DNA of 64,000 nucleotides from an uncultured Acidimicrobiia bacterium (GCA_963714055.1 OY970227.1:499079-563078), one strand, 5' to 3'. Positions 1 through 64,000 are shown, counted from the first letter of the stretch. Numbers and translations are program-made. Notes: generated from the sequence alone by a model not told the origin.

Positions 1-1264
1 TCCTCGAGGTTGCGGGCCCGGCCGTCGTGGAGGAACGTGGTGTGGCCGTTGACGGTCTCCACCAACCCGATCCCCCACAGCGGCGGTGTTCGCCACTCCG
101 AGCCGGTGGCGAGGAAGTCGGGTCGTCCGTCCGCCAGCCCCGGGCCCATGTCGTGCAGGAGCAGGTCGGTGTACGGGTGGATCTCCTGGCCGGAGAGCTG
201 GGTGACCGGGTGATCCCCGGTGAGCAGGGTCGGTGTGTGGCAGGCCGTGCACCCGATGGCGGCGAACAGCTCGGCACCCCGCTCGACCTCGGGCTCGTCC
301 ATCCCTCGGCGGGCCGGGACCGCCAGCGTCTGCGAGTAGAACTCCATGTCGTCCATGCGGTCGGCGGGGATCTCGGGCGACCCCCCGGTCGGGGCGGCGA
401 GGCACGCACCCGCCGGGGTCGGGCAGTTCTCCTCCGGGTGCTCGTCGCTGGTGATGCCGATGTCGCCGGCAAAGGCCCCGGCCACCTGGTCACGCACCGT
501 GGCGACGTTGGCCTTCCACCCGAACCGCCCGAGGGTCACCGGCTCGTCGGGCCCGGTGGCGACGTAGTTGGGACGGCCGGACACCCCGTCGCCGTCGGCA
601 TCATCGGGATCGGCGAGGTCGAGGACGGCGGCCTCGGGCACCGCCTCGAGCAACCCCATGCCGATCACCTGCGGCGCCACCCGCGGCGAGGTCAGCGTGG
701 CGGCGTCGAGGGCGCCGTAGGCGAGGTCGGTGAAGTCGTACGCGCGGTCCGCTCAGGGTGTAGGTGGTGCCGTCGGCGTACGTCCCCTCGATCTCCTCAT
801 GGGTGATCCGCACGATGCCCTCGGCGGCGACCCCGGAGATGGCGCGGTCCTGCAGTTGGTCGCCGTAGAGCGGGTCGGGCAGCGGGGCGCCCCAGGCGCG
901 TCTCGCCCGGGTACCGACAGCCGCACCAGCAGCCCCCGCTCGGGATCCTCTGGCGACTCCGGCGGGCGGCCCCGCCCGTCGCCGACGTGGCACGACGAGC
1001 ACAGGCCTGGGCATTGAGGAGAGGCCCCAGCCCGTCCCGGGCATCGGTCGACGAGGGCGCGGTCACCCAGTTCTGGGTGAAGAAGCTGTCGCCCACCTCG
1101 AACACCCTCCGCTCACGGGCGGTGAGGCCGGGGATCGGCTGCCCGAAGGCGTTCCGGGTGGCGAACGCCACCGTGGCGTCGCCCCCCGAGGCCGGGTCGA
1201 GCAACTCGGGATCGGCTCCGCCACAGGCGGCGACGCCGCCGAGGGCGGCCAGGCCCAGAGCCAC
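1..1264 (-). pseudogene. DUF1111 di-haem cytochrome c peroxidase-like thiol oxidoreductase, partial at window edge, disrupted by >=3 frameshifts (~745, ~940, ~1010)
   Basis: Minus-strand translation gives an N-terminal lipoprotein signal (MALGLAALGGVAACGG) and the motif GLGPLLNAQAC in one frame. Other frames then give SCHVGDGRG, PLYGDQLQDRAISGVAAEGIVRITHEEIEGTYADGTTYTL, and a long run RFGWKANVATV...CTACHTP...EWRTPPLWG...FLHDGRARNL. All are DUF1111 hallmarks, and the gene is adjacent to an imelysin gene. Confidence 0.7.
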
Positions 1265-1291
1265 TGCCGCCAGCCGGCGTCCGGGCCTGCC

Positions 1292-2455
1292 TCACCCCGC
1301 CCCGAGCTGGATCCCGAGAGCGGTGGCGGCGGCGGCGATGAGCTCCGCCTGGGCTTGGAGGGAGTCGATCGTGGCGAGGATCGACTGGCGGCCCGGGTCG
1401 TCGTCGGGCACGTCGATGCCGAGGTGCTGGTCGAACGGCGCCGGTATCGCCTCGGCGAGCGCCGTGCTCTCCTCCACCGCCGCCACCAGCTCCTCCGAGA
1501 GGGCCTCGTCGGTGCCGGCGAGCAGGTCGGCCAGCCCGGGCCCGGACACGTCGCCATAGTCGCCGTTGACCACGGCGCCGATCCCGGAGGCGTTGGCCAC
1601 GATGTCGGACGTGGTGTTGTCCGAGAAGCAGGAGTGCTCGTCCTCCTGGCTCCGCTCCTCATAGGCCACCGACATCCGCTCCCCGGCCAGCTCACCGCTG
1701 CTCAGCTCCCCCACCCCGGTGAAGATCATCGCCAGCGCCTCGGCCGGGTCGAGGGCCACGAACTCGCTGCGGTAATTGCCGCCGTCCTCAACGGGAGCCC
1801 AGGCGGCCACCAGGCCGTCCAGGTGCTCGAGGAGCAGGTCGGAGGTGGTGGCGAGGTAGGCGGCGCGACGGTCGGCGTTCGGGCTGGTGGTGTAGTCCTC
1901 GACCGGCCGCGCCCCCGGCCCGTCCGCGCTCAGGTCCTGGCCCCACAGGAGGAACTCGATGGCGTGCCACCCGGTGGACACGTTGGCCTCGCCACCCTGC
2001 TCGTTGGCGGCCACCAGGGTGTCGGCGTCGATGGTCGGGTGCTCGTCCGTGTTGTTGACGATGCCGGCTTCGGAGTCGCCATCGACGTAGTCGATGTAGG
2101 CCTCGTCGAGCGGCCAGGCGTTGACCAGACCCTCGACGCCGGTCTCCTCGTTGTCGATCGGCCCGCCGTAGAACCGGAACGCTTCGGTGGGGCCGTAGTC
2201 GTCCCGGGCGGTCAGCCAGGCTTGCTTGGCGGCGTCCAAGGTCTCGGTGGTCGGGTCGGCGACGAACGCGTCGATCGCCTCGTCCATCGCCTGTGCCGAC
2301 TCCAGGCTGGCGGAGTACATGGCGTGCACGCCCTCGGCGTAGGTATCCACCACGTCCTGCTCGGACACCTCGTCTTCACCACCGCCGCAGGCGCCGAGCA
2401 CCAGCCCCACCACCAGTGCCGCCGCCGAGGTCCGCTTCCCAGCACTCGCACCCAT
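1292..2455 (-). CDS. imelysin (peptidase M75 / IrpA-like) lipoprotein
   Basis: 408-aa ORF. An internal Met begins the lipobox signal MGASAGKRTSAAALVVGLVLGACGG. The rest matches the imelysin fold and length. It is the classic operon partner of DUF1111. Confidence 0.75.
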   Translation of the reverse strand: MGASAGKRTSAAALVVGLVLGACGGGEDEVSEQDVVDTYAEGVHAMYSASLESAQAMDEAIDAFVADPTTETLDAAKQAWLTARDDYGPTEAFRFYGGPIDNEETGVEGLVNAWPLDEAYIDYVDGDSEAGIVNNTDEHPTIDADTLVAANEQGGEANVSTGWHAIEFLLWGQDLSADGPGARPVEDYTTSPNADRRAAYLATTSDLLLEHLDGLVAAWAPVEDGGNYRSEFVALDPAEALAMIFTGVGELSSGELAGERMSVAYEERSQEDEHSCFSDNTTSDIVANASGIGAVVNGDYGDVSGPGLADLLAGTDEALSEELVAAVEESTALAEAIPAPFDQHLGIDVPDDDPGRQSILATIDSLQAQAELIAAAATALGIQLGAG

Positions 2456-2523
2456 TCGTCGACTCTCCCTAACTCTTTGTGTTAGGGAGACCTTATTTCC
2501 ACTACGTCGGTGGTGCAAACTGC

Positions 2524-2573
2524 GAACCTGAGGTCCTCACATGTCGCTCCGATAGGTGATCGCCTGATCTTCG
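2524..2573. repeat. copy 1 of a dispersed ~50-bp palindromic element (GAACCTGAGGTCCTCA...CGCTCCGATAGGTGATCGCCTGA)
   Basis: Near-identical copies at 27575-27630, 56746-56795 and 56848-56915. This copy lies directly upstream of the imelysin start. Confidence 0.7.
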
Positions 2574-2605
2574 GCTGGACCAGGCCAACCATCGCCGGCG
2601 AGCAG

Positions 2606-3096
2606 TCACCCGCCGCCATCGGCGAACAGGCGAAAGCCGACGTTGGGGGTGGGCCGGGCGGGGTCGGCGGGGAGCGTGCGCTCGGTGCGCACCCCCCAAG
2701 CCGAGTCGAGCCAGCTGCCGCCATGGAGCAGGCGCCAATCACCGTCGATCACGTCGGCGCACCACTCCCACACGTTCCCTGCCTGGTCGAGCGTCCCGAA
2801 CGGGCCGGCTCCGTCCGGCCAGGCGTCCACCGGGGTGGTCGTCCCGAACCCCGCCTCGAGTGAGTTGCACCGGCCGGGAGCGAACTCGTCTCCCCATGGC
2901 CACCGCAGCCGCTGGGGACCGGCGGCGGCGAATCGCCATCGCTCCGACGTGGGCAGGCCGAGGTCGATCCCTGTCCTCTCCCCCAGCCAGCGGCAGTAGG
3001 CGACGGCTTCGTGCCAGGTGACGTCGACCACCGGGTGCCGGGCGAACACCTCCGGTACCCGCGCCCCGTGAACCTGGCGTACTCCGTTCGCGTCAC
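2606..3096 (-). pseudogene. FGE-sulfatase (formylglycine-generating enzyme) domain remnant, N-terminally truncated and frameshifted (~3045)
   Basis: One frame gives VTRTEYARFTGRGY. The next gives PEVFARHPVVDVTWHEAVAYCRWLG...GNVWEWCAD...HGGSW...GFR, all FGE motifs. Only ~58 bp remain upstream before the next gene, so the N-terminal half is missing. Confidence 0.55.
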
Positions 3097-3154
3097 CGGG
3101 GCCCGGCCGATCCGGCAGGGCGGCTCGGTGCCGACGACGACGAGGTCGGGCGGG

Positions 3155-4177
3155 TCAGGCGGTGACGAGCCCCAGCTCCTGCTTCTTCGCCTCGACGTCG
3201 ATACCGTGCAGGCGAGCGAGGTTCTCGCCGAGGATCTTCCGCTTCGCCTGCAGCGTCAACGGCGGGTAGCCGTAGTCGTCGGCGAGGTCCTGGGGCAGCT
3301 CGAAGTCCATGAACGCCTGCAGCGCCCACTGCGGGTGCCAGATCGGTGACTCCCCGCCGTAGAGGATCTTGTCCTCGCCGCACCACCACAACATCTTGGC
3401 CAGCGTCTCGGCGAACACCCTCGGCTGACGTGAGATGAAGTTGACCGTGGCGGCGATCGAGGCGAACAGGTTGGGGAAGCGGACGATCTGCCACAGCACC
3501 TCGTCCAACCACGGCAACCCGACGTGGAAGATCACGAAGTTGATGTCGGGGAAGTTGGCGGCGGCGCCGTCCATGTCGAAGGTGCGGGTGTGCTCGATCG
3601 GCTGCGGGCCCAACGGCACCCCCTTGTGCACCCCGATCAGGTTGACGCCCAGCTCCTGGGCCTTCTCAAAGACCGGGAAGGCGACCCGTGGGTCGTCCAT
3701 CCGCCACGGGAACGGCTGCCCGTTGTCGTAGCGGACGTTGTAGAACTTGAACGCCTTGGCGCCGAACTCCTTGACCTGGACCTCCATCAGCTCGAGCGCC
3801 TTCTTGCCCTCCAGCGGGTTCACCGATCCCCAGAACACGGCGCGGTCGGGATGGCGGGCGGCCATGTCGGCGCACTTCTGCCAGTCGGACAGCCCGTCGT
3901 GGAACAGGTCCGTCAACGGGAGCGGCTGGGCCACGATCATGTCGGTGTCCGAGCCCTCGATCACCATGTCGTAGATCTCGTCGACCGACCACTCCCGCAG
4001 GAAGTCGTCGGCGCCGAGCACCGTCTCGCCCTCCTTGGTGAGGAGCTGGTGGAAGGCGTACAGGTGGTAGATGAACAGTTCCCCGGGGGGGCCGAAGGCG
4101 TTCTTCAGGTCGAAGTTGAAAATGTGGCAGACGCAGTCGAAGACGAACGCCTCGTTGCCGTCCTTGTCCTTGATCAT
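3155..4177 (-). CDS. amidohydrolase-2 family metal-dependent hydrolase
   Basis: Start MIKDKDGNEAF... at an internal ATG with a GGAG RBS; 340 aa. The DxHxH-like motif FDCVCHIF and the TIM-barrel amidohydrolase C-terminus are present. Confidence 0.7.
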   Translation of the reverse strand: MIKDKDGNEAFVFDCVCHIFNFDLKNAFGPPGELFIYHLYAFHQLLTKEGETVLGADDFLREWSVDEIYDMVIEGSDTDMIVAQPLPLTDLFHDGLSDWQKCADMAARHPDRAVFWGSVNPLEGKKALELMEVQVKEFGAKAFKFYNVRYDNGQPFPWRMDDPRVAFPVFEKAQELGVNLIGVHKGVPLGPQPIEHTRTFDMDGAAANFPDINFVIFHVGLPWLDEVLWQIVRFPNLFASIAATVNFISRQPRVFAETLAKMLWWCGEDKILYGGESPIWHPQWALQAFMDFELPQDLADDYGYPPLTLQAKRKILGENLARLHGIDVEAKKQELGLVTA

Positions 4178-4190
4178 CTCGGGTCTCCGA

Positions 4191-4553
4191 TCATCGGCGC
4201 ACCTCCATGCGCAGCCGCTCTTCCCGGTACGGGAGGAGGGGGGTGAGATCCATCTCCAGCTTGGCGCGGGCATCGTCGCTGAGCCGGTCCATCGTCCACA
4301 CCGGGTCGAACACGACCGACACCGCCACGTCTTCGACACCGTCGATGGTCGATACCTCGTCGGTGAGCATCCGGTCGAAGCCCGCTACCGACGGGCACCA
4401 CCCGGTGGTGAGCACCATGTCGATCTCGACCCGACGACCGGCGATGCGGACGTCGTCGATGAGACCCATGTCGACCACCGAGATCTCCCGCTGGCGACAA
4501 CACGGGTCGTAGCAGCGGCCGAGCGCATCGAGGACCGCCTGTCGACTGACCAA
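4191..4553 (-). CDS. DUF59 / MIP18-SufT-like Fe-S cluster assembly protein
   Basis: 120 aa with VVDMGLIDDVRI...VEIDMVLTTGWCP, typical of PF01883. Confidence 0.65.
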   Translation of the reverse strand: MVSRQAVLDALGRCYDPCCRQREISVVDMGLIDDVRIAGRRVEIDMVLTTGWCPSVAGFDRMLTDEVSTIDGVEDVAVSVVFDPVWTMDRLSDDARAKLEMDLTPLLPYREERLRMEVRR

Positions 4554-4675
4554 GGCACCTCCCTCCTCGCCGGCCCCAACCTACCGTCCGGATCCACCGG
4601 CGTGCAGGGAGACCGAGCCCACTTCGCAGCTGCCGGCCCGGTACCCTCTGGCCCGGTCGCCGACCCGGAGGATGC

Positions 4676-5900: not shown

Positions 5901-7247
5901 ATGGGACCATCCCACCCGCCACACGCCGCACGGATACCGCATCTGTTGGGCGCGCTCGTGTTGACGGTGGCCATGCTCGGTGCCGCCCCGGCAGTGGCTG
6001 CCGACGGGCCGGGGGCACCCTGGGAGGAGTGGGCCCCTACAGGTGTGTCGGGACCGTTGGTCGGGCCGGGCGGGCGTATCGTCGGCCAGCGCGGACCGGA
6101 CGGGGCACCTGGCGAGGCAGGCCTGGCCGGCGAGGCGGGCGAGCCCGGGCCTGCCGGTCCGCCGGGCGCCACCGGCGCCGCCGGTGCGACCGGGCCCGAG
6201 GGCGAGCAGGGCCAGACCGGTGCGCAAGGCGACCCGGGCGAGATCGGGCCGCAGGGCCCGGTCGGACCCGTCGGCCCCATGGGACTTCAAGGTGAACAGG
6301 GCATCCAGGGCGACCCGGGTCCTATCGGTCCCATCGGGCCCCAAGGCCCGCAGGGTGAGCAGGGAATCCAGGGAGAGCAGGGCATCCAAGGCGACCCGGG
6401 TCCTATCGGTCCCATCGGGCCCCAAGGCCCGCAGGGTGAGCAGGGAATCCAGGGAGAGCAGGGCCCACAAGGCGAACAAGGCGAACAGGGACCCCAGGGC
6501 GAAGTCGGTCCAATCGGGCCCCAAGGCCCACAGGGTGACCAGGGAATCCAGGGACCCCAGGGAGAGCAAGGCCCACAGGGAGAGCAAGGCCCACAGGGCG
6601 AACAGGGAGTCCAGGGCGAAATCGGACCCATCGGGCCGCAAGGCCCTCAAGGCCAACAGGGAATCCAAGGCGATGTCGGGCCCATCGGGCCCATCGGGCC
6701 ACAAGGCGACCAAGGACCCGTCGGGCCCATCGGGCCAACCGGACCCCAAGGCGACCAAGGAGCCCAAGGCATTGCTGGACTGCCGGGGCCCATCGGGCCA
6801 CAGGGACCGCAGGGCGATACCGGCGCTGAAGGACCGCAAGGCCCACCGGGGCCGGCCGGTACCACCGGCGCCGAGGGGCCGCCGGGACCTCAGGGGCCGG
6901 CAGGTCCCGCGGGACCGGCCGGCCCGGCAGGACCTGCTGGACCGGCTGGCCCGATCGGCCCCGCAGGCCCGGCGGGACCACCCGGGACGTTCTCGGTGGT
7001 GGTCACGACCAACAGCCTGTCGGCCACTCCGGGCGCCGGCTTCCAGCTGACGGTCACCGCCACATGCACGACCGGTGTGGTGATCGCGGGTGGTGCCGCC
7101 ATCGGCGGGTCCCCGACCCAGGGACAGCAGGTGGCCCTCAACCAGTCGTTCCCGCAAGGAAACACCTGGGTAGCTCGGGCGCGGCAGGGCGGTAGCGGCA
7201 ACACAGCCTGGAACTTGACCTCCTACGCCGTCTGCCGGGTGCCCTGA
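5901..7247 (+). CDS. collagen-like triple-helix repeat protein with signal peptide and non-collagenous C-terminal domain
   Basis: The signal peptide is followed by ~290 aa of uninterrupted Gly-X-Y repeats ([21 protein letters not shown]...), then a ~90-aa Thr/Gly-rich globular tail. This is the BclA/Scl-like architecture. Confidence 0.85.
6300..6461. repeat. 2 x 81-bp perfect tandem duplication inside the collagen-like gene
   Basis: ggcatccagggcgacccgggtcctatcggtcccatcgggccccaaggcccgcagggtgagcagggaatccagggagagcag occurs twice in tandem (1 mismatch). It encodes a repeated 27-aa GXY block. Confidence 0.8.
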
Positions 7248-9486: not shown

Positions 9487-9650
9487 AAGCCGAGCGCCAG
9501 CTCGGCGGGCATGTCACGGCCCAACGATGGGCTGGGGCCCCATCTGCGGGAGGAGCCGAGCGCCAGCTCGGCGGGCATGTCACGGCCCGCGATGGGGTTG
9601 GGGCCCCATCTGCGGGAGGAGCCGAGCCCTGCTCGGCGGGCATGTCACAG
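9487..9650. repeat. MIRU-like tandem repeat array (2.4 x ~63 bp) abutting the 3' end of tRNA-Val
   Basis: The unit gagcgccagctcggcgggcatgtcacggccc..ggggccccatctgcgggaggagcc is repeated. It contains the palindromes ccgagc-gcca-gctcgg and tggggcccca. The same family recurs at 30961-31116 in the opposite orientation. Confidence 0.75.
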
Positions 9651-9651
9651 T

Positions 9652-9723
9652 GGGCGTTGACGGGCTCGAACCGCCGACCTCTTCCTTGTAAGGGAAGCGC
9701 TCTTCCAGCTGAGCTAAACGCCC
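9652..9723 (-). tRNA. tRNA-Val (anticodon TAC)
   Basis: Reverse complement GGGCGTTTAGCTCAGCTGGAAGAGCGCTTCCCTTACAAGGAAGAGGTCGGCGGTTCGAGCCCGTCAACGCCC folds as a cloverleaf. It has a 7-bp acceptor stem, GCTC/GAGC D-stem, anticodon loop CTTACAA and T-loop TTCGAGC. CCA is not encoded. Confidence 0.85.
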
Positions 9724-9801: not shown

Positions 9802-11265
9802 ATGGCCCCCCTGACCGCCCGCCTCCTCGTGTTCTTCACCGCGGCGGCGGTGCTGGTGATGGAGATCCTGGCGGGCCGTCTCCTCGCACCGTACGTAGGG
9901 GTCACGTTGGAGACATTCACCGGGATCATCGGGACCGTCCTCGCCGGGATCTCGCTGGGGGCGTGGGCCGGGGGACGGCTGGCCGACCGCCACCCGCCGG
10001 TGCGCCTGTTGGGCCCGGCGCTCGTCGTCGGCGGGCTGTTCGTGCTCCTCGCCCCCACCATCGTCGCCGCCGTGGGCCCGGCGCTCACCGGCGGCGGGCC
10101 GGTGGAGATCGTCGTCCTGGCCGCCCTGGGCTTCTTCGTCCCTGCAGTGGTGCTGAGCACGGTGACGCCGATCGTGGCCAAGATCACCCTCGACGACCTC
10201 GCCGAGACCGGATCCGTGGTCGGCGGGCTGTCCGCCACAGGTACCGCCGGCGCCATCTTCGGCACCTTCCTCACCGGGTTCGTGCTGCTCGCCGCGCTAC
10301 CCAGCCGGCCGATCGTGCTGGCGGTCGGCGTCGCCCTGGTGATCGCGGGGACGATCCTCGCCGCTCGCTCCACCAAGCTCGGGCCTCCCGGGGTGGCAGC
10401 CGTAGTGGCGGCGACGCTGGTCGGGGCGGCCCTGCTCGGGATCGTGTCGGGGCCCTGCCAGTTCGAGACCGGCTACTTCTGCGCCCGCGTCACCACCGAC
10501 GAGCTCCGGGAGAGCGGCCGGGTGCTGTGGTTGGACACCCTGCGCCACTCGTACGTCGACCTGCTCGACCCCAGCTACCTCGATTTCCGCTATGCCCGGC
10601 TGGTGGCGGACACCGTGCTCACCACCGCACCCGACGGTCCCCTCGACGCCCTCTACATCGGGGGAGGCGGATTCACCCTCCCCCGCTGGCTGTCCGCCGA
10701 GCGGCCCGGGAGCACCAACACCGTGCTCGAGCTCGATCCCAGCCTGGTCGACATCGCCGAGGACGAGCTCGGGCTGGTCACCGCCGAGATCGACGAGATC
10801 GCCATCGGCGATGCCCGCCTCGGCATCGACGACACCCCGGAAGGGGCGTTCGAGGTCGTGGTGGGAGATGCCTTCGGCGGGCTGTCGGTGCCATGGCATC
10901 TCACCACCCGCGAGTTCCTCGAGGACATCGACTCCCGGCTGGCACCGGGAGGCCTCTATGTGATGAACCTGATCGACTACCCACCGTTCCGCTTCGCCAG
11001 GGCGGAAGCGGCCACGCTCGCCGAGGTGTTTCCCGAGGTGCTGGTGCTGGCCCCGCCGGACTACCTGCACGGGAGGGCCGGGGGCAACGTCGTGCTCGCC
11101 GCCGGGGCGGCACCCTTCGACGTCGCCTCGATCGAAGCCGCCATCGCCGACCGGGCCGGCTCCGAGGTGGCCCTCACCGGGGCCGAAGCCGCCGAGTGGA
11201 TCGACGGCTCCCCGATCCTCACCGACGACTTCGCCCCGGTCGACCAGTGGATCAGCCGGGGCTGA
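9802..11265 (+). CDS. fused membrane-domain / spermidine synthase-like polyamine aminopropyltransferase
   Basis: N-terminal ~200 aa with multiple TM helices, then the Spermine_synth signature LYIGGGGFTLPRW...VVVGDAFGG...PWHLTTREF...PGGLYVMNLID. Confidence 0.7.
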   Translation: MAPLTARLLVFFTAAAVLVMEILAGRLLAPYVGVTLETFTGIIGTVLAGISLGAWAGGRLADRHPPVRLLGPALVVGGLFVLLAPTIVAAVGPALTGGGPVEIVVLAALGFFVPAVVLSTVTPIVAKITLDDLAETGSVVGGLSATGTAGAIFGTFLTGFVLLAALPSRPIVLAVGVALVIAGTILAARSTKLGPPGVAAVVAATLVGAALLGIVSGPCQFETGYFCARVTTDELRESGRVLWLDTLRHSYVDLLDPSYLDFRYARLVADTVLTTAPDGPLDALYIGGGGFTLPRWLSAERPGSTNTVLELDPSLVDIAEDELGLVTAEIDEIAIGDARLGIDDTPEGAFEVVVGDAFGGLSVPWHLTTREFLEDIDSRLAPGGLYVMNLIDYPPFRFARAEAATLAEVFPEVLVLAPPDYLHGRAGGNVVLAAGAAPFDVASIEAAIADRAGSEVALTGAEAAEWIDGSPILTDDFAPVDQWISRG

Positions 11266-11291
11266 GCCGGTCCAGCCAGTCCATCAGGACG

Positions 11292-11987
11292 TCACGGAAC
11301 GCCTCGTACCGGTTGCGGTGGATCGAGTGCTCCCCGCCCGGGATCATCACGTAGTCGACTCCGGGCAACCTGGCGGCCGCCTCGCCGTCCGCCGCGCTCG
11401 ACCAGGGCCCCGACCGCAGGGTCGGCGCCGATGAGCAGCGTCGGGATCCCCAGCTCGGCGAGCCATGGGCGGGTATCGATCGAGCCGATCGCCTCCAGCG
11501 TCCTGCCGACCACCTCGGGCCCCGCTTGGCGCAGCGCCTCCACCTTGGCGGCAACGTCCCTGGGCGCCCACCCGGGATGGCGGGCGGCGATGGTCGCCAC
11601 GTCGATCGTGCCGGCGAAGTCCTCGAGCAGCCATCCCCGCACCTGCTCGGAATCGGCCAGCACCAGCGCCGGGTCCTCGAGCACCAGCGCCGTGGTCCAG
11701 TCGGGGTCGGCCGCTTGGCAGGCGACCGCAACCAGCCCGCCCAGCGAGTGTCCGAGCACCACGTCCCAACCGGAGCCGAGGGCGAGGATGTCGTCGCGAT
11801 AGGCATCGAGCCGGTGGTCGTCCACCGGCGGCGAGTCGCCGTGAGCCCGCAGGTCGGGCGCCGTCACCGAGTACCCGGCGGCGGTGAGGTCGGGGCCGAG
11901 CCGCCACCACCCGTTGGCGTTCGACAGGATGCCGTGGATGAGCAGCATCCGGCGCTCGCCGTTGCCGAAGCCACGTTCCGGGCTCAT
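11292..11987 (-). CDS. alpha/beta-hydrolase fold protein with apparent C-terminal frameshift (~11400)
   Basis: LLIHGILSNANGWWRL...GHSLGG motif. The authentic C-terminus (LPGVDYVMIPGGEHSIHRNRYEAFRDVLMDWL) sits in the -1 frame. The shift occurs in a gcgcggcgg run. Confidence 0.6.
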   Translation of the reverse strand: MSPERGFGNGERRMLLIHGILSNANGWWRLGPDLTAAGYSVTAPDLRAHGDSPPVDDHRLDAYRDDILALGSGWDVVLGHSLGGLVAVACQAADPDWTTALVLEDPALVLADSEQVRGWLLEDFAGTIDVATIAARHPGWAPRDVAAKVEALRQAGPEVVGRTLEAIGSIDTRPWLAELGIPTLLIGADPAVGALVERGGRRGGRQVARSRLRDDPGRGALDPPQPVRGVP

Positions 11988-12427
11988 GCCGTCCCGCGGG
12001 TCCTCACCATGATGCAGGCGTTGACCACCGCGGTCAGGTCGTTGGCGGCGATGAAACGCTCGACCTCCGGGTCCTCGGCGCCGGGTTGGACCCAGACGTT
12101 GTCGAGATCGAGAGCGACCACCTGCTCCAACACCTTCATCGTCTGGTCGGGTGGCACCACGATGTCGATGACCGTGGGGTGGACCGGCAGCGAAGCCAGG
12201 TCGGGGTAGGCAGGGTCACCGTCGACGGTGGACCGGCGGAGGTTCACCGGGTAGACGGTGTATCCCTTCGCCTTCAGGTCTCGATAGATGACCGAGCCGT
12301 ACTTGGCCGGGTTGTCGGTGGCGCCGACCACGGCGACCGAGGCGCCCGGTTCGGAGAGCAGTGCGACGAGATCGGCCACGGTGCAACGGTAGCGCCACCC
12401 GGATGGAATCCCGGGTGGCGCTGCCAC
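11984..12427 (-). CDS. CoA-binding domain protein (PF13380)
   Basis: VAVVGATDNPAKYGSVIYRDLKAKGYTVYPVN is the CoA_binding_2 signature. The stop overlaps the downstream hydrolase start (ATGA coupling). Confidence 0.65.
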   Translation of the reverse strand: MAAPPGIPSGWRYRCTVADLVALLSEPGASVAVVGATDNPAKYGSVIYRDLKAKGYTVYPVNLRRSTVDGDPAYPDLASLPVHPTVIDIVVPPDQTMKVLEQVVALDLDNVWVQPGAEDPEVERFIAANDLTAVVNACIMVRTRGTA

Positions 12428-36257: not shown

Positions 36258-36470
36258 TCAATCCCAGCGGCGCTCCTCGGCGTCGGCCTGCTCGTTGCGA
36301 CGGCGGACGGTGTCGAGGGCGCGTTCCGCCGCCGCCAGGTCCGAGTAGGGCCCGAGCAGGTTCCGCAGCGGGCATCGCTCGTCACCGGACTCGACCCGGT
36401 CGTGCTCGACGCACCAGTAGAACCTCTGGTCGGCATCGGGGAGGTCGCCGCCGGAGTCGTTCACGGCCTC
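36258..36470 (-). CDS. small hypothetical Cys-containing protein
   Basis: Only the C-terminal ~70 aa look protein-like (RFYWCVEHDRVESGDERCPLRNLLGPYSDL...). The start is uncertain (GTG). Confidence 0.3.
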   Translation of the reverse strand, partial: EAVNDSGGDLPDADQRFYWCVEHDRVESGDERCPLRNLLGPYSDLAAAERALDTVRRRNEQADAEERRWD

Positions 36471-41743: not shown

Positions 41744-41854
41744 GCCGCACCAACGGCGGGTCGCCGACCTGGTCGCACACCACCGCTCTCATCGGCGGGC
41801 AGCGTAACCTCCGGCCGGCACGTCCCGCTTTCATCGAACACTCGACGCGGGACT

Positions 41855-44481: not shown

Positions 44482-44587
44482 GCAGGTCACGGGTTGTCGA
44501 CCTCCACCAGGGTGTACCCCAGCGGGCCGTCGGCGTCGGAGTGCCTGACGACTCCGATGTTCAACCCCTGTTCCGCGCCGGCCCAGC

Positions 44588-48110: not shown

Positions 48111-48124
48111 CTCCGTGTCCTTTC

Positions 48125-48230
48125 GGCCGTGGTAACTCGACCTGTCCGGAGCTTGCCCCACGCCTCTTCCCGCTGTCACGGGGTGGGGCTCTCGTCTGCG
48201 TCGGGAAGCGACCCGGGATTCAGCCCGGCC
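48125..48230 (-). promoter_or_regulatory. conserved ~80-nt nested-palindrome 5' leader element, copy A (upstream of the cupredoxin lipoprotein gene)
   Basis: ~88% identical over ~75 nt to 52100-52200. The RNA sense reads CUUCCCGA.GCAGACG...GCCCCACCCCGUGACAGCGGGAAGAGGCGUGGGGCAAGCUCCGGACAGGUCGAG. It contains a 7-bp stem CUUCCCG/CGGGAAG and GCCCCAC/GUGGGGC, which could pair as a pseudoknot. It ends ~15-25 nt before the RBS. Confidence 0.45.
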
Positions 48231-48908
48231 TCAGGGTTGGCCGGGGCGTTGACCCAATCCGGCCTGGCGGGCGGCGACGATGGCGTGGGCTCGGTCGGAC
48301 AGGTGCAGCTTGGCGAAGATGTTGGAGATGTGGTTGCTCACCGTCTTGCCCGAGATGTAGAGACGGGAGGCGATGGCGGCGTTGTCGTGCCCGGTGGCGA
48401 TGAGGTCGAGGACCTCGCGTTCGCGGTCGGTGAGCTCGGGGAAAGGGCTCACCGACATCCCCTTGCCGTCGGCGTGCTGGAAGAAGACGGTGAGCCGGCG
48501 GGCGATGGCCGGCCCGAACAGCGCCTCTCCGGCGGCCACGGCCCGGATGGTGCGCAACACCTCGGCGGTGTCGGCGCCCTTGAGGATGTAGCCGTGGGCG
48601 CCGGCGCACATGGCGGCGAACAGGGAGTCGTCGTCCTCGAGCATGGTGAGCATCACGACCTCGACGTCAGGGTGGTCGGCGCGGACCCGGCGGGTGGCCT
48701 CGATGCCGTTCATGTCCGTCATCTGGATGTCCATCAGGACCACGTCGGGCGCCGTCTCCGCGATCCGGGCCAGTGCCTCGGCCCCGGTCCCGGCCTCGCC
48801 CACCACCTCGGTGTCATCGGCGGCGGTCAGCAACGCGGTCAGTCCTTCGCGAAACAGCGTGTGATCGTCGACCACCAGCACGCGCAGCGGACGGGTCCGC
48901 TCAGCCAT
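48231..48908 (-). CDS. LuxR/NarL-family response regulator
   Basis: Start MAERTRPLRVLVVDDH. REC plus LuxR HTH (LTDREREVLDLIATGHDNAAIASRLYISGKTVSNHISNIFAKL). Confidence 0.85.
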   Translation of the reverse strand: MAERTRPLRVLVVDDHTLFREGLTALLTAADDTEVVGEAGTGAEALARIAETAPDVVLMDIQMTDMNGIEATRRVRADHPDVEVVMLTMLEDDDSLFAAMCAGAHGYILKGADTAEVLRTIRAVAAGEALFGPAIARRLTVFFQHADGKGMSVSPFPELTDREREVLDLIATGHDNAAIASRLYISGKTVSNHISNIFAKLHLSDRAHAIVAARQAGLGQRPGQP

Positions 48909-51106
48909 GCGGCACCTCGACCGCACTCGGGACCGGGCGGTCCGGTGGCGCCGGCTCCAGGCCCGTAGCACTCTCGACCGCTGCCCGACCGGGAAGGGTC
49001 GCCATGGGGAGGGTGGCGGAGACTTCGGTGCCGGCGCCGTCCAGGCGGGATACCCGGAGGGTTCCACCAAGCTCCTCGGCTCGTTCCCGCATCGATGTCA
49101 TGCCGACACCCGGCTGGGTGACGGCGCGGACACCGACACCGTCGTCGACGATCCGAATGAGCAATGCGCCATCGGCCAACTCCAGCGAGATCCTGCAGAT
49201 CGACGCACCGGCGTGGCGCGCCACGTTGGTGACGGCCTCGCGGGCGATGCGGTAGGCGGCTACCTCCACGGCGGCGGGGAGATCGCCCAGCGGGTCCGGA
49301 TGAGTGGTCACCTCCACTCGCAGGTCGTTCGAGCGGTCGAGCTGCCCGCCGTGCGCCGCCAGGGCTCCCACCAGGCCGAGCTCGTCCAGGGCGGGTGGTC
49401 GCAGCTCGTACACCAACCGGCGGATGTCTGCCACCAGCTCCTGGTTCTGCCGCTTGAGCGACGTCACCAGCTGGGCGACGTCAGGTCGATTGTCGGCGAG
49501 CAGGGCGAGCACGGCGTCGAGCCGGAAGGTCTGGCTGGCCAGTGACGGGCCGAGACCGTCGTGCAGGTCGCGGCGTAGTCGCCGCCGTTCCTCCTCGCGG
49601 GCCAGCACGAGCTGTTCGCGGGATCGCTGCAGCGCCTGGGTGAGCCGCATCGCATGGGCCAGGCCGCCGGCCTGGTGGGCCACGTCGTCGAGGAGGCGGC
49701 GATCGTCGGCGTGGAGGCCCTCGTGGGCGGATCGTGGGGCCACCACCAATCGGCCGACCAGTTCCCCTTGGTGACGTAGCTCGATCGTCTCCACGTTGTC
49801 ACCGAGATGGCCTACGAAGGCCCGGGTCTCCCAGGTCCCGTCTTGCTCCAGCTCGAACGCCACCCCGGGCAGCTTGAGCGCCTCGGCGACGGTCTGGACC
49901 AGGCTGTGGAGCGTGGCGTCCGGTTCGCCGGACTGCGCCAGCAGGCGACCCAGCTCCGACAGCACCGCATAGGGGTCGTCGCGCCGACCGAACATCACCC
50001 GGTTCACCACCCTCTGCACCCGGTTGCGCACCGGGTTGAACGCCACCGCCACGATGGCGGCGGCCAGCAGCGACAGGCCCAGGTTCCCGCCGGTGGGCAC
50101 CAGGGCGCCGACACCCACCACCACCGCGACGTAGGCCGCCGCCACCAGGGCGGTCATGGTCCCGTAGACGACGGTGCGGTTGATCACCAGGTCGACGTCG
50201 TAGAGCCGGTAGCGCAGCACGCCGAGGCCCAGAGCGATCACCAGGAAGAGACCGGAGGCAGACGTGAGGGCATCGAGGGGGGCGGTCAACCCGAGGTCGA
50301 CGCCCTCCCCCTCCACCAGGACGGTGTCGACCAGTACCAGGGCCTCGAGAAAGGCCACCAGGCCGAAGGCGTAGAGCACCCACTTGAGACGCTGGCGAAG
50401 ATCGGTGCCGGAGGTGCGCCACCGCGTGATCAAGCTACCGACCCCGACCACCACCGACGCCATCATCACCAGCAACCAGACGGTGTTGACGACTTCCTCA
50501 GGCACCGGCAGGATCCCGGTCGGGTTGGACGGTGGCGAAGCCACCTCCAGGAACCGGTTGGTCAAGGGCCGCTCGGCTCAGCATGAAGGCGGTGATGAGG
50601 ACCACCCACGCCCAAGCCACCACCGGTACCGCCCGGCGCCACCGGCCCACAGAATGCCCGTCGGGGAACAGAGCCGGGAGCAACAACAGGGCGAATACGA
50701 AGGTGATCATCCACAGGTCCTGCACCCACTCGGCCACACGACCGAACGGAAGACCCGGAGCCACGTACCAGGCGTACTCGGCGTACATGCCGGCCAGCTC
50801 GATGACGCTGATCAGCACGCCGGCCGCCAGCATCAACCACCCGTAACGCTGCGGACGGCCTCGCAGCACCACGACGCCACCCAGCATGGTCAAGAAGAGG
50901 AGGGTGAGCGAGGGGACGCGGTCGCTGGGGAAGAACGCGGGACCGACACCGGGCACGGCGGCGGCGCGAAGTCCCGACATCAAGGCCCATGCGCCGATCG
51001 CGCACCCCGCCGCCACCGCTGACGCCGCGGCCACGATGAGCCAGTGCCAACGTCGCAAGGCCGGTGATGGCCCCGATAGTGGGGACGCGGCCGCCATCAC
51101 CGTCAC
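48901..51106 (-). CDS. multi-TM sensor histidine kinase (HisKA_3/HATPase_c, GAF-like region) with apparent frameshift (~50530)
   Basis: H-box LRRDLHDGLGPSLAS and the ATPase motifs IVDDGVGV...GVGMTSMRERA are present. An additional N-terminal multi-TM module (50498-51106) lies in the adjacent frame. Confidence 0.7.
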
Positions 51107-51130: not shown

Positions 51131-52087
51131 CTACGCAGCGCCGGCTGCGGGCGGCGGTAGCAATCGGTCATGCCACCGGCTCGACGTGACCAGCTGCCAT
51201 GAGGGGGGACCCGGCTGGAGTTTCGCGCCGGGACCGACCGACGGTGGCCACGGCGAAGGCCGCGCCCCAGAGGATCGCCGCCGCCGCCCAGAAGGTCGAC
51301 GCCGCCGACGCCACGTCGGGGTACACCAGGGAGTGCAGTCCGTACTCGATGGATCCCGAGCGCGGCGATCCAGGCGGGCAGACGCCACCCGGGATGGTCG
51401 CTCGACCCGAGCAGCCCGCACCAAAGGACGACCACTGCCAGCAGGGCTGCGGTGGCCCAGTGCTCCATCCCGGCGTGGGGGTCGCCGGCGGCGTTGCGCC
51501 ATTGCAGCAACGCGTGGTCGACGGCGAACACCAGCCAGGGAACCGCCGCTAAGCCCACCAGAGCACCCATCGTGACGATCCGTCCTGGGGCACCGGACGA
51601 GGTCCTGCGCCCGGGGGTGGAGCAGCGCCAGGAGCAGCACCGGCACCAGCAGCGTGACCTCCTCCACCAGCCACTCACCCAGGGTCCCGCTCAATCCATA
51701 GACGACGGCACCCGCCACGACGATGCCGACCGCCTGCAGCATCGGCGCCACCCGTCGCTCCGGCTTGCGCAGCTGCACCACGACGCCCAGGACAAGTGCC
51801 CAGGCGATGATGCCGGCGATGTTCATGTGGCCGCGGTGGATCTCGTCGGCGGCGGGCAGGTCGTCGATGAGCGACATCAACGTTTCCCAGGGCAGCCACA
51901 TGAACACCACTTCCGTGACGGCGAAGATCATGAAGATCGACACCAGCAGGGAGGTCAGCACCGCCAGCACGCGGAAGGCGATCCGCCGCGCCCGAGAGCC
52001 ACCCTCTTCCGGGACCTCCCCCGCCTCGATGGGGGTGCGGCTCGCCGAAGCTCCCCCGAGCGCCTCTACGTCCCTGGTGTTGGTCAT
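51131..52087 (-). CDS. hypothetical polytopic membrane protein (first gene of the LuxR two-component operon), frame-disrupted near its 3' half
   Basis: Start MTNTRDVEAL with a GGAGGAA RBS, preceded directly by leader copy B. TM segments appear in two frames (FRVLAVLTSLLVSIFMIFAV..., ...LVGLAAVPWLVFAV...). Confidence 0.45.
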   Translation of the reverse strand: MTNTRDVEALGGASASRTPIEAGEVPEEGGSRARRIAFRVLAVLTSLLVSIFMIFAVTEVVFMWLPWETLMSLIDDLPAADEIHRGHMNIAGIIAWALVLGVVVQLRKPERRVAPMLQAVGIVVAGAVVYGLSGTLGEWLVEEVTLLVPVLLLALLHPRAQDLVRCPRTDRHDGCSGGLSGGSLAGVRRRPRVAAMAQRRRRPPRRDGALGHRSPAGSGRPLVRAARVERPSRVASARLDRRARDPSSTDCTPWCTPTWRRRRRPSGRRRRSSGARPSPWPPSVGPGAKLQPGPPSWQLVTSSRWHDRLLPPPAAGAA

Positions 52088-58513: not shown

Positions 58514-58517
58514 TCGG

Positions 58518-59542: not shown

Positions 59543-61100
59543 TCAGCTGACGGTGCCTTCCGGTCCCGCCGGCGGCGGGATCACGAAGTTGCCCGGCACA
59601 GGACGGCCGGGGACACCGTTGATCGTCTCCGTCGAGTAGGCGTAGGTCAACACGGCGAAGGCGATGGCATCGGCGTTGGTCCGCAGCGCATGGGCGTTGA
59701 AGTTGTCCCTGGTGTCGCAGGCCAGGTGGTAGCAGGGGTCGTACTGGGCCCCCTCCACCCCGCCCCAGATCGCCACCTGCTCGGCGGTCTTCGGCACCTC
59801 GGCGCCGGTGAACAGGCCGCCGGCCGGGATGTCGGCGAGGATGAACGCCTCGTAATCGCTCCGCCCGCTGAACTCGGCGTCGTCGTAGGGCTGGCCGGTC
59901 AGCGTGAAGAACGACTCGAACGTGTCCTCGATCTCGATCGAGCCATCCGGTACCGGCACCGGAGCCACGAACCCGGACTCGTCGCCGTCGTACACCATGA
60001 AGATGTAGTTCGGCGATCCGACCATGTCGAAGTTCAGGTAGAGGGCGATCCGAGCCAGCTCGGTCTCGTCGAGGCTCTCCACGTAGGCGGCCGACCCCAG
60101 CAGGCCGTCCTCCTCGGCGCCCCACCAGGCGAACCGCAACGTGTTCTGCGGTGTGTGGTTGCCCAGCTGCTCGGCCACCTCCAACAGAGCCGCCGAACCG
60201 GAGCCGTTGTCGTTGATCCCCGGACCGGCCTGCACCGAGTCCAGGTGGCCGCCTGCCATCACCACGTTGTCGTCGTTGACGCCGGGCAGCTCGGCGATGA
60301 TGTTCACCTGTGGCCTCTCCTCCGGCGGGTCGACGTCGATGAACGCCGTCGAACCGGCCGGCCGACAGCGCCTCACCGTCGGCGAACGAGGCACCGACCA
60401 CCGGGATGGTGACTGCGGCGCCGTCCGGGAGCAGCGTGCCCACGATCAGCCCTTCGCGGGTCGGGTCGTTGCCCTGGTTGAAGATGATCACCGCCTCGGC
60501 TCCGGCGTTCTGGGCGTTGATCGCCTTGACCCCGAAGGTGCACGTGCCCCGCTGGATCAGGGCGATGTCCGAGTCGCCGGAGAAGTCGGCGGTGAAGTCG
60601 GTGGCCTCGCACCCGCTGGTGACGGGATCCCGGGGAAGCACCAGGTTGATGTCGACCGGGATCACGTTTCCGGTGATCTCTCCCGAGCCCGATCCGGTGA
60701 ACGGACCGGTCTCGTAGACGGCGTCGACCGGGGTCAACTGCTGCAGGGTCGCCGGCGGGATGAACGTGAACGGGAACTCGTGCAGCTCCACGCTCCATCC
60801 TGCCGACTCCAACCGGTCGACCACGTAGTCGACGCTGGCGTCGTACCCCGGCGTACCGGCGGCACGGGTGCCGCCGTTGGCGTCGGCGATCCTCTGGAGT
60901 GCGTTCTGGTGGGCGCGGACCTGGTCGAGCCGCACGCACTGGAGAAGCTTCTGGTACGTGTTGTTGTCGCGATTGTCGCAGGCGGCCTGCGACGGCGCCG
61001 CCGAAGCGGCGGTGGCCGGCAGCAGCACCATCACCAGCGCGGCCACCGCGCTCAGTGCTGCGAAGCGACGTCGCCGATTCCCTCGATCCCCGGATGGCAT
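59543..61100 (-). CDS. secreted M28-family aminopeptidase with PA domain; apparent frameshift (~60385)
   Basis: Signal peptide with a strong GGGAGGAGG RBS. PA domain (IALIQRGTCTFGVKAINAQNAGAEAVIIFNQGND). The catalytic domain (NIIAELPGVNDDNVVMAGGHLDSVQAGPGINDNGSGSAALLE) is in the adjacent frame. The shift occurs in a gccggccgg run. Confidence 0.7.
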
Positions 61101-61109
61101 CGCTGCCTC

Positions 61110-62231
61110 CTCCCTCGGATCGGCCGCGGGGCCGGATCCGTCGACATGTCTCCCGATACACCTTACGGACTCGAGCCCGGCGATGCAGAACCGTGCCCCG
61201 GTCCCCGGCCGCCGCTTCAGCAGTTGATCAGGAGCCTCGCCCCGGCAGGTGTCGACGCCGGCCCCGCCGTTGACGACGTCGATGCCCAGGCCGCCGATCA
61301 ATGTGTCGGCCCCGGCCTGGCCCCGGAGCCCGTCGCCGCCGGCACCGCCGACGATGCGGTCGCCGCCGGCCTGCCCGTCGAGATCGTCGCCACCGGGACC
61401 GCCGTAGATGTCATCGGCGCCGGCGTTTCCGTCGATGTCGTCCGGACCGGCACCCCCACAGATGAGGTCATTGCCGCCCCGGCCGTCGATGTCGTCGGCG
61501 CCGCCCAGCCCATGGATGACATCGCGACCCGAAGTCCCCTCGAGGACGTTGGCGCCGGAGCTGCCCACCATCGTCACCGCCGCCCCGTTGCACTCCACGA
61601 GCCAGCCGTCGTCGTCGAACCAGTCCACCAGCTGGTCCGCCACCAGCGTGACGCCGGACGAGTTGAGATGGCAGAGGTCGAGGCTGAGCAGGCCGGTGGG
61701 GAGCGGGCCGGTGACCGGGCCCGGGTCGATCCCCAGGTTGGCGACACCCCAGGAGACCGTGGCCAGTCCCGTGGCGAAGGCATCAGGCCCGACGCGGGAG
61801 CAGACATGACCGCCTCCGTACTCGTTGATCGGCGACACGTACACCGGGATGTCCGGGTCTCGCGAGCGGATCTGGTCCACCACCTCGGTGAGCAGCACGT
61901 TCGGGTCGTGGTCGTCGTTCGCCCTCAGGCACAACATGACCCAAGCCGCCTGGTAGCCGTCGCTCGGTCGCGAGGCGTCGTACCGACCCCAGGCGGCGGG
62001 ATGGCTGGAGACGTCGGGGTCACCCCACACATCGAAGGACAGCCCACCCATCGGGTAGTACGGCATCTGGTCGATCTCCGAGGCGGTCAGGTATCCCCGG
62101 ACGTGCTGGGCGGTGTTCGAGCACCCGACGACACCGAGCGTGCCCGCCGGGAAGGGCGGTGTCGCCGGTCCGGCATCGGAACCAGCGGCGCCCATCGGGA
62201 CGAGGAAGACGACCAGCAGCAACGACCCCAT
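61110..62231 (-). CDS. secreted protein: N-terminal ~230-aa domain of unknown function plus RTX-type calcium-binding repeats (paralogous repeat/C-terminal region to the 23512 gene)
   Basis: Signal MGSLLLVVFLVPMGAAG, then GGxGxDxL repeats ending GVDTCRGEAP (compare GSDTCHGAPG in the 23512 gene). No stop precedes the M28 start in this frame, so the true 3' end is unclear. Confidence 0.5.
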
Positions 62232-62430
62232 CACCGAGCGGGCGACGGATCGGACGCTGATGACCCCGAGATGGGCGCGCCTCGACACGCCGTCGACCCT
62301 ATGGGATCCCCGTCACCGGCGCATCACCGGGCGGGTGACACCGCCAGACCAACGTCTCCCGGTCGCGCGGGACGTCGCCGCATCGGCCTGCAGCAGCATC
62401 GGGCAGCGTCCGATCATGACACACGCACAC

Positions 62431-64000
62431 TCAAGTCTTCGGGACGAGACGGTCGAAGGCGAGGCCGCTGGAGGCTTCGCCGCGGCCGGTCTGCCTCTGG
62501 ACCCCGAGCCAGGTGTAGACCCGGCCGTCCCGCCACCTCGTCCGCTGCCAGGAGCGGGTGACGATCTCGCCGGCCCGGCTGATCTCCTCCTCGTACACGA
62601 GGTACGGCGGAGGCACCACGGCGTCGGCGCCGGGCCGGAGGAGCTGGGTGCGTGGCCTGATCTTGGCCGGCGTGACACCGGTCGTCCCCTCGAGGAGTCG
62701 GGGCATGGCCGCCCGCTGGAGTTGGATCTCACGGTTGTCGCCGGTGATCTTCACCGCGATGAACGGGATCCAGTTCTCGGCGACCCGGTTGGTCAGCTGG
62801 TAGCGCACCGTGGCGTCGTTGGCGGGCGGACCGGTGGTCGGCGCCCCGCCAGAGGCTTGGTCGGCCACCGACTGGTGGCGGCGGTGCGTCTCGACGGCGA
62901 CCTCGTGGCCGCGGCGAGACGAGCCGTCGGGCAGGTGGACGACCGTCTCGATGCCCCACACCAGGTTCGACACCTCGTCCCGCACCAGGTGGACAGCCTC
63001 CACGGGAGCGCCTTGGAGGATGGTGGGGGTGGTGGTGAGCATGGGCAGGCCGGGAGCGCTCGTCCCGTCGCGTCCGGTGATGGTGAACATGGCCCACGAC
63101 CGCCACGCCTCGCCGACGGCCGTCGACGACGGCTCGATCCAGGTGCGCTCGCCGAAGACGTTGGTCACCGCCAGGCCGTCCACCTGGGTGACCGTGCCGA
63201 GCGCCAGCTGGATCGGGGCCAGGAACCAGTCGTTGGCGTACACCAGCCCGAACTCGATGAGGAGGAGCTTGTTGAGGTCGGTGGTGTCCGGCTGGATGTC
63301 GCCGAAGCTGGTCGCCGCCTCCTCGAAGGTCCACCACCTGGTGTGCGGCATGCCGTCGAACTGGGCGTTCGTCGGGAAGAAGCTCCGGGTCACCCTCCGC
63401 GCCGGGTCGGGGGGTCCCGGCGGCGGGAACGGCGGTCCGGTGTCGGTGGCGCCGGCGACATCGAAGCTGTACCAGTCGAGGTGCCCGCCGTGGTATTCGT
63501 CGGCGATCAGCGTGCGCGGCCCGGTCGGTGTCGGCGCCGAGAGGGCGACGCCGTACTCGAGGTGATGGGGCAGCCACGAGTCGCCGGCCGGGTCGCCGGG
63601 CCGGTCGAGGAGGCGGTTGAACCAGTCGACGAACAGGCCGCCCAGGGTGTCCACCGTGTCCTTGTCGGTGCCGGTGAGCCCCAGGCCGTCGGAGGCGAGA
63701 TGCCCGGGATCGGCGACCAGGTGCTGGAACAAGGCCATGCCGTCGATGGCCCTCCCGGCGACGGCGACGTGGGTCTGCCACACCGCCGGGTGCGCCGTCA
63801 CCGGGTGATCGGCCTCGTCTTCCGGGTCGGGAGCGGTGATCGGGTATTCGCCGAGGAAGAGGGTCTCGAGGCCACCGAGGCCGGCGGCACGGAGCCGCTT
63901 CGCCCAGTGGCGGCCCATCAGCAGCCTGAGGTCGAGCGAGACCGGTCGGGTGCCGAGGGCGGTGGGGATCGGCTGTCGCTCGGTGATCGCCTCGAGCGGG
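62431..64000 (-). CDS. large conserved hypothetical protein, partial (continues beyond the window end)
   Basis: The open frame continues upstream of the first Met (…PLEAITERQPIPTALGTRPVSLDLRLLMGRHW…). More than 520 aa are visible and no domain is recognised. The protein has an internal Pro-rich segment (GPPFPPPGPPDP) and a hydrophobic core motif (LLLIEFGLVYANDWFLAPIQLALGT). Confidence 0.45.
   Translation of the reverse strand, partial: PLEAITERQPIPTALGTRPVSLDLRLLMGRHWAKRLRAAGLGGLETLFLGEYPITAPDPEDEADHPVTAHPAVWQTHVAVAGRAIDGMALFQHLVADPGHLASDGLGLTGTDKDTVDTLGGLFVDWFNRLLDRPGDPAGDSWLPHHLEYGVALSAPTPTGPRTLIADEYHGGHLDWYSFDVAGATDTGPPFPPPGPPDPARRVTRSFFPTNAQFDGMPHTRWWTFEEAATSFGDIQPDTTDLNKLLLIEFGLVYANDWFLAPIQLALGTVTQVDGLAVTNVFGERTWIEPSSTAVGEAWRSWAMFTITGRDGTSAPGLPMLTTTPTILQGAPVEAVHLVRDEVSNLVWGIETVVHLPDGSSRRGHEVAVETHRRHQSVADQASGGAPTTGPPANDATVRYQLTNRVAENWIPFIAVKITGDNREIQLQRAAMPRLLEGTTGVTPAKIRPRTQLLRPGADAVVPPPYLVYEEEISRAGEIVTRSWQRTRWRDGRVYTWLGVQRQTGRGEASSGLAFDRLVPKT

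Follow-up and report, generated by a model that had tools for sequence, protein, structure and literature searches.

Frame disruptions in a 64-kb segment of an uncultured Acidimicrobiia genome are most likely consensus indels of a long-read metagenome assembly

The 64-kb stretch of DNA analysed here in full (GCA_963714055.1 OY970227.1:499079-563078; hereafter the window) has ~70% GC, comes from an uncultured Acidimicrobiia bacterium and contains conserved genes whose reading frames are broken by small insertions and deletions. An earlier note, made from the sequence alone, had reported at least 25 frameshifts in about 15 such genes. Nucleotide alignments now place 26 frame-breaking events, each of 1 or 2 nt, in 14 otherwise conserved genes, in agreement with that count. 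There are 24 insertions and 2 deletions, and 25 of the events (23 extra-base and 2 missing-base) are private to the window, being absent from every relative that covers the site. Only one, an extra base at ~29518 in the second of three CorA paralogues, is also present in another assembly (L001). As almost all of the events are private, as sister assemblies carry indels of their own elsewhere, as contigs apparently assembled from short reads have none in coding sequence, and as single-base edits restore the frames, the events are very probably uncorrected consensus indels of a long-read-only metagenome assembly. In addition to the 14 broken genes, the window has two truncated gene remnants, one composed of SGNH and FG-GAP fragments and one an FGE domain.

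The gene content of the window is of actinobacterial type, with MtrA/MtrB and a downstream gene encoding 494 aa, three CorA paralogues and kbl-tdh, and the exact proteins of the window are found on one contig of 3,254,181 bp. The comparison set includes ENA metagenome contigs, found via the exact tdh and ferritin proteins, that are distinct from the window and 92-98% identical to it in nucleotide sequence. Event sites are covered by L004, L005/L001/L006, L002, L031 and L030, with L004 and L031 sharing one sample source (ERZ25039469). One sister contig is CAWEUW010000009.1 (uncultured Acidimicrobiia bacterium isolate MFD05567.bin.2.61, contig_29920), and those sisters that have so far been named belong to Microflora Danica (MFD) metagenome-assembled genomes (MAGs) obtained from Nanopore reads only, with Flye and one Medaka round. 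The MFD-LR MAGs were assembled with Flye in meta/nano-hq mode and given that single Medaka round with no short-read polishing, and the catalogue's authors screened it for errors associated with Nanopore sequencing in MAGs of low coverage (PMC12313526). L030 is a Joint Genome Institute contig, 92.5% identical to the window, and L003, at 98% identity, is the closest contig with a MEGAHIT-style name (k141).

Events were placed by three-way or pairwise nucleotide alignment to these independent assemblies, and reading frames were followed in the window and its sisters with a seven-state codon-usage Viterbi path (six frames plus non-coding). This was preferred to a phase plot of third-position GC (GC3) and to a GC3-filtered list of open reading frames (ORFs), both of which are too noisy for strand calls at 70% GC, and Viterbi decoding of the corrected sequence was preferred to a table of longest open frames before and after correction, in which spurious long open frames were misleading. 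The path has 44 same-strand frame switches across the window, many at or near the junctions listed in the earlier note. When translations joined along the path were searched against Pfam, single domain matches crossed the junctions for DHOR, Abhydrolase_6, CorA, HATPase_c, ADH_N and Peptidase_S8. These matches, and the relatives that keep the genes whole, bear out the proposal that coding continues in an adjacent frame across the breaks. The extra bases of the window lie at most 20 nt from a frame switch of the window itself, with the nearest sister switch hundreds of nt away, and bases missing in the window relative to the sisters coincide with sister frame switches. From this symmetry, it follows that the events differ from assembly to assembly and are private to each. 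Three-way alignments have both sisters agreeing against the window at the DHOR, alpha/beta hydrolase, 50575 and 51358 sites, and the comparison with orthologous loci that had been suggested as a check finds every covering relative without the event at 25 of the 26 sites.

At the start of the window, and cut by it, is a minus-strand gene for a DHOR/DUF1111 di-haem oxidoreductase (1-1293; PF06537). It had been described as frameshifted three times; the frameshifting is upheld, with five events rather than three, all extra bases private to the window, at 741 (+1), 898 (+1), 906 (+1), 996-997 (+2) and 1276 (+1). The joined frames match PF06537 positions 6-464 of 499 through three junctions, the gene is called intact at 464 aa in L004 and L005, both without the extra bases, and editing leaves one frame of 431 codons up to the window edge. 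An alpha/beta hydrolase gene (11254-12003, minus strand) has a private extra G at 11400, a junction crossed by an Abhydrolase_6 match (positions 2-216 of 217); L004 and L005 are without this base and encode an intact protein of 244 aa, and the edited gene is a single frame of 250 codons. CorA2 (28825-29805, minus strand), in which a CorA match (positions 2-292 of 292) crosses the junction at the extra base, becomes one frame of 327 codons once corrected.

A second dense run of events begins with an MtrB-like sensor kinase (33181-34548, plus strand) that has an extra C at 34296, where HATPase_c crosses the junction. The base is not in L006, the window frame switch is 4 nt away and the nearest sister switch 1114 nt away, and the edited gene is one frame of 456 codons. 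The same relative is without the extra G at 37010 in a large membrane protein with an esterase-like C-terminal part (36469-38883, minus strand; window switch 1 nt away; 805 codons in one frame when edited) and without the extra G at 38925 that shifts the last ~20 codons of an adjoining dienelactone hydrolase (38884-39642, minus strand; Pfam DLH match; 253 codons in one frame when edited). Two extra bases, at 40889 and 41556, interrupt a quinone oxidoreductase (40830-41745, minus strand; ADH_N and ADH_zinc_N) in which ADH_N crosses the junction at 41559; L006 has neither, and their removal gives one frame of 302 codons. The gene of an ArsR-type helix-turn-helix protein (41974-43005, plus strand) has an extra C at 42301 that is also not in L006; the window switch is 6 nt away and editing gives one frame of 343 codons. 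The extra C at 47789 in a cupredoxin-like lipoprotein gene (47278-48105, minus strand) is again not in L006, with the window switch 2 nt away. For a HisKA_3 sensor kinase with multiple transmembrane segments (48904-50937, minus strand), the three-way alignment finds the extra G at 50575 in neither L006 nor L031, and the main body of the edited kinase is one frame of 588 codons. A membrane protein not listed in the earlier note (51238-51981, minus strand) has extra bases at 51358, not in L006 or L031, and at 51575, not in L031, the sole sister covering that site.

Near the other end of the window, a PA-M28 aminopeptidase gene (59578-61060, minus strand) has an extra G at 60360, with the frame switch at 60342 flanked by PA and then Peptidase_M28 matches. 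Across 97% of its length, the joined protein shares 95% identity with P0121, an intact protein of 504 aa; L030 is without the extra base and the edited gene is one frame of 492 codons. An adjacent RTX (HemolysinCabind) repeat protein gene (61100-62268, minus strand) has an extra A at 61233 that is not in the intact orthologue of 337 aa in L030, and becomes one frame of 349 codons when edited.

The PA-domain subtilase gene (44491-47277, minus strand), for which four or more shifts had been proposed, has seven events: extra bases at 44712, 44831, 45753, 46230 and 46374, and missing bases at 46993 and 47196. Its joined frames match Peptidase_S8 positions 1-274 of 288 through three junctions and can be aligned from end to end with intact homologues of ~975-985 aa. 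The alignment to the best of these (P0001, 978 aa) is made up of seven frame blocks, collinear and without any large deletion, and after seven edits these become one block that matches residues 72-978 with 89% identity. The edited gene, a frame of 928 codons, likewise aligns as one block to residues 74-979 of the intact 980-aa subtilase of L031 (88.5% identity). The L006 subtilase has two different shifts of its own. Position 45698 was considered as an event of the window subtilase and rejected, as removing this base broke the frame and the event is the sister's.

Editing 25 sites in the window (23 removals and 2 restorations) results in a single continuous frame in all 13 genes covered; the membrane protein at 51 kb needs, beyond these 25 sites, the further edit at 51575. 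The same-strand switches that are left after editing are ordinary gene boundaries and the two remnants. That the region from 43 to 47 kb would survive polishing as a gene graveyard is, consequently, right for the segment at 43380-44481 and wrong for the subtilase at 44.5-47.3 kb, repaired by its seven single-base edits. In frame-tracked comparisons of the window with its relatives, divergence at codon positions 1, 2 and 3 is 3.4, 1.9 and 9.3% for the broken genes and 2.0, 1.5 and 7.6% for intact genes. The ratio of position 3 to position 2 divergence is 4.9 in broken and 5.1 in intact genes, with third-position bias retained, which implies that the shifted segments have all evolved as coding sequence, each in its local frame. 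Judged from these substitutions, this is the divergence that would be expected of functional genes with technical frameshifts and not of decaying pseudogenes.

Reductive decay, in which the frameshifts would be real mutations in a lineage undergoing recent pseudogenisation, was the biological alternative offered with the earlier note. There are features of the window that it would accommodate: the SGNH fragment and truncated FGE domain look like real remnants, the CorA2 shift is common to a second assembly and the presence of three CorA paralogues would make the loss of one tolerable, and the events cluster in secreted and accessory genes. Many frameshift-interrupted genes near a few truncated remnants are also seen in pseudogene-rich reductive genomes such as those of Mycobacterium leprae and recent host-restricted symbionts. 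In contrast to such genomes, the shifts in the window are not inherited by relatives, apart from that in CorA2 and then by one sister only. In none of the 14 broken genes is there an in-frame stop or large deletion, such damage being confined to the SGNH fragment and FGE remnant, and all 14 are collinear and full-length after single-base edits. Their third-position bias is that of intact genes, and seven independent frameshifts in one gene of 2.8 kb that is otherwise undamaged is unlike a pseudogene. Together with a similar density of private indels in every sister long-read assembly, these observations make decay a highly improbable explanation of the events.

Over a shared 19.4 kb, the window has 8 private 1-nt indels, mostly intergenic, whereas L001 has 30 and L002 has 58, and over 3.4 kb the window has 2, L006 has 8 and L031 has 15. 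These correspond to ~1.5 (L001), ~3 (L002), ~2.3 (L006) and ~4.4 (L031) private indels per kb. The kbl, S9 peptidase, cyclase-ATPase and IDI genes are whole in the window and interrupted in one or other of the sisters, the broken genes not being the same in each; even a housekeeping gene such as kbl is affected among three other Nanopore assemblies of close relatives that, elsewhere, have as many private 1-nt indels as the window or more. As originally noted, kbl, tdh and the genes encoding the S9 peptidase, cyclase-ATPase and acyl-CoA dehydrogenase are whole in the window. Turning to the apparent short-read contigs, L030 has no same-strand frame switches along its Viterbi path, its M28 and RTX genes are intact, and its coding sequence differs from that of the window only by indels of 3n nt, apart from the extra bases of the window at 60360 and 61233. 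Between L003 and the window, the coding differences are one indel of 66 nt and none that breaks a frame. The proteins P0001 and P0121, counted with these contigs, are likewise intact.

Consensus indels are known to introduce frameshift errors into gene calls, and metagenome bins below ~40x coverage still need polishing with Illumina reads (PMC9262707, from the same group as the MFD-LR catalogue). The IDEEL full-length-protein test has been used to gauge such indels in long-read-only assemblies and MAGs (Sereika et al. 2022, PMC9262707; mmlong2 MFD-LR catalogue, PMC12313526). The events in the window resemble them in being single-base and private, in splitting conserved genes, in being absent from apparent short-read contigs and in a rate that varies by bin, and the named sister MAG was made by exactly the mmlong2 MFD-LR pipeline. 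They differ from the homopolymer indels of the literature, and from its low-GC, homopolymer-rich genomes, in being mostly insertions outside homopolymers in DNA of 70% GC, and the window's platform is, presumably, also Nanopore.

Several observations weigh against attributing the events to consensus error. Knowledge of the platform and coverage behind the window's contig is indirect, and L030 and L003 are apparently short-read assemblies as judged by their contig names and sources. Many sites are covered by one sister only, so that polarity there comes from reading-frame logic and not from a majority vote. The CorA2 event is shared with L001. The distribution of events along the window is uneven, with dense stretches at 0.7-1.3 kb and 34-51 kb and a sparse one at 12-31 kb, and could reflect local coverage or strain mixing. 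The insertion bias of the window (24:2) exceeds that of the sisters (~2:1; 82 insertions and 44 deletions among private indels pooled across assemblies), and there is no concentration in homopolymers, with 55 of the 82 private insertions not beside an identical base. Only about 8 of the 26 window events extend runs of 1-2 identical bases. The breaks had been described as sitting in short G/C runs: this is only partly right, as the inserted bases are nearly all G or C, although ~79% of the pooled inserted bases being G or C is close to the base composition at 70% GC, and the link to runs is weak, only about a third of the events extending a same-base run. The signature is thus one of scattered consensus indels that does not fit the classic Nanopore/454 homopolymer pattern. 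This weakens the match to homopolymer error and not to consensus error generally; the long-read indel error raised in the earlier note is strongly supported by the privacy of the events, the indels of the sisters, the lack of such indels in coding sequence of the apparent short-read contigs and the frame-restoring edits, with a 454 or homopolymer-type signature not fitted. A separate technical possibility is that Flye/Medaka fails reproducibly in this way, with insertion-biased, non-homopolymer G/C errors, on metagenome bins of high GC and low coverage.

The bases involved in the window events are nearly all G or C and often make a CpG with their neighbour, for example CTC[G]ACC, CAC[G]CGC and CAG[C]GGC. 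Across the assemblies, 35 of the 82 insertions form a CpG, a raw count with no null expectation beside it.

A variant of the assembly-error explanation is that the reads were accurate and that Flye/Medaka merged co-existing strains into a chimeric consensus with spurious bases. Several populations that are 92-98% identical are present in the same project, two of them (L004 and L031) in one sample, the events are densest beside strain-variable structural differences at 34-51 kb, and they are not tied to homopolymers. Against this, the DUF1111 cluster adjoins a variable island (2520-4610) yet lies within no variable segment. Strain mixture would itself be one kind of assembly error rather than a rival biological explanation, and only the reads could separate it from low-coverage error; as the specific cause we consider it possible but rather unlikely.

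Programmed ribosomal frameshifting or transcriptional slippage could, in principle, restore the frames in vivo. Programmed +1/-1 frameshifting is known in prfB, dnaX and IS3-family transposases and, as in those systems, two overlapping frames in the window jointly encode one protein; that the downstream frames stay open is the sole point in its favour. In contrast to the known cases, the sites are not conserved, the sisters and homologues being in frame at all tested positions, the surrounding sequences vary and have no slippery motif in common, and there are up to seven shifts per gene in both directions. An Rfam scan of the window returned one tRNA only and found no recoding element. The probability of recoding is negligible. 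Stop-codon reassignment, considered for adjacent genes in one frame that are one stop apart, was rejected, as these are ordinary boundaries with separate Pfam domains and sister gene calls.

For CorA2, alignments and translations place the extra base at the same spot in the window and L001, with L002 in frame throughout. Possible explanations are a genuine frameshift common to both, an error that recurs in this sequence context, and coincidence; from the error density of L001 the chance of at least one such coincidence somewhere in the window is, by a rough estimate, ~1 in 3. CorA2 is the middle one of three adjoining CorA paralogues (27670-30935), two on the minus and one on the plus strand, and it alone holds a shared frameshift.

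The two remnants are probably not simple base errors, and the CorA2 shift is possibly not one either. The first is a 1.1-kb segment (43380-44481, minus strand) that alignment shows is not present in L006. It has a signal peptide and FG-GAP repeats, an internal SGNH/GDSL piece (43761-44041) and further FG-GAP-like sequence. It had been described as an FG-GAP/SGNH mosaic, one gene shifted five or more times, but its homologues are FG-GAP proteins on the one hand and one SGNH protein (P0393) on the other, with no single family spanning both, and it is instead composed of fragments of two gene types. L031 has an intact SGNH hydrolase of 281 aa, of which the SGNH piece represents residues 122-213; a deletion of ~230 nt follows the piece. 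The L031 hydrolase is located between the response regulator and subtilase genes, whereas the SGNH piece of the window is on the far side of the subtilase. Two origins are possible for the segment, a structural remnant left as a genuine scar of rearrangement or a chimera of the assembly, and base-level polishing would not repair it.

The response regulator-subtilase interval is itself variable (47278-48350 in the window, 3998-5229 in L031), with the cupredoxin-like lipoprotein present in the window and L006 and the intact SGNH hydrolase in L031; positions 48143-48350 of the window resemble the L031 region upstream of the subtilase (83% identity). A stretch of 51 nt is 88% identical between the fragment mosaic (43615-43665) and the 3' end of a NarL-type response-regulator gene (48286-48336), is also found in L006 and L031, and may be a recombination footprint.

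The second remnant is a 5'-truncated FGE-sulfatase domain (2606-3156, minus strand) that matches PF03781 positions 87-253 of 255 in one frame, without positions 1-86. The earlier note had listed it as frameshifted (~3045), whereas the match points to truncation at the 5' end. It lies inside a window-only island (~2520-4610) that both sisters skip. Between the imelysin and ferritin genes, the island contains, with the FGE domain, an Amidohydro_2 protein and a small DUF59/PaaD-like ORF, and in both sisters imelysin directly adjoins ferritin. Taken together, a minority of the disruptions might be real, CorA2 being an ancestral frameshift in two lineages and the segments at 43.4-44.5 and 2.5-4.6 kb true strain-specific rearrangement scars, with SGNH, FG-GAP and FGE fragments, around a variable subtilase locus. 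We offer this joint interpretation tentatively, as a distinct possibility that falls short of probable; if true, it would represent ordinary accessory-genome turnover in a soil Acidimicrobiia population.

Other repeated and variable sequences were noted in the window. An ORF at 5901-7247 (plus strand, 448 aa) encodes collagen-like Gly-X-Y triplet repeats, with nested tandem repeats of period 18-99 nt and a strong AT skew, and the codon-usage Viterbi path wrongly placed it on the other strand. A REP-like intergenic repeat of ~48-66 nt with the core CCTCCCGCAGATGGGGCCCC...CCCGCCGAGC forms short tandem arrays, in opposite orientations, at 9488-9648 and 30962-31097. One array adjoins a tRNA-Val(TAC) gene (9650-9723), and copy number varies among the window, L001 and L002. 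Upstream of kbl, at ~20773, there is a variable intergenic array with a unit of ~24 nt (CACCGGAGGTGCC...), for which L001 and L002 have extra copies (44-96 nt in total) not in the window. A stretch rich in (ACC)n/(GGT)n (31240-31374) differs in length among the window, L001, L002 and L006 through indels of 3-4 nt.

With consensus error as the favoured explanation, the window would be part of a 3.25-Mb single-contig MAG of an uncultured Acidimicrobiia that, like the named sister MAG, was most likely assembled from Nanopore reads only with Flye and Medaka. The proximate cause would presumably be a weak consensus, from low coverage or a mixture of strains, at which the assembler and polisher would leave scattered single-base indels, mostly spurious extra bases. 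Each would shift the frame of a functional gene, so that gene callers and readers would see split genes, and in the organism the genes would be intact. There is no new biology in the frame disruption, and its value is in quality control only. Nanopore-only MAGs of high GC can hold ~0.4-4 frame-breaking indels per kb outside homopolymers, and homopolymer-aware fixes alone are therefore insufficient. Annotators working from such a sequence would arrive at too few intact genes, record false pseudogenes and misread the metabolism of the organism, as exemplified by the DHOR, CorA, MtrB, subtilase and M28 genes.

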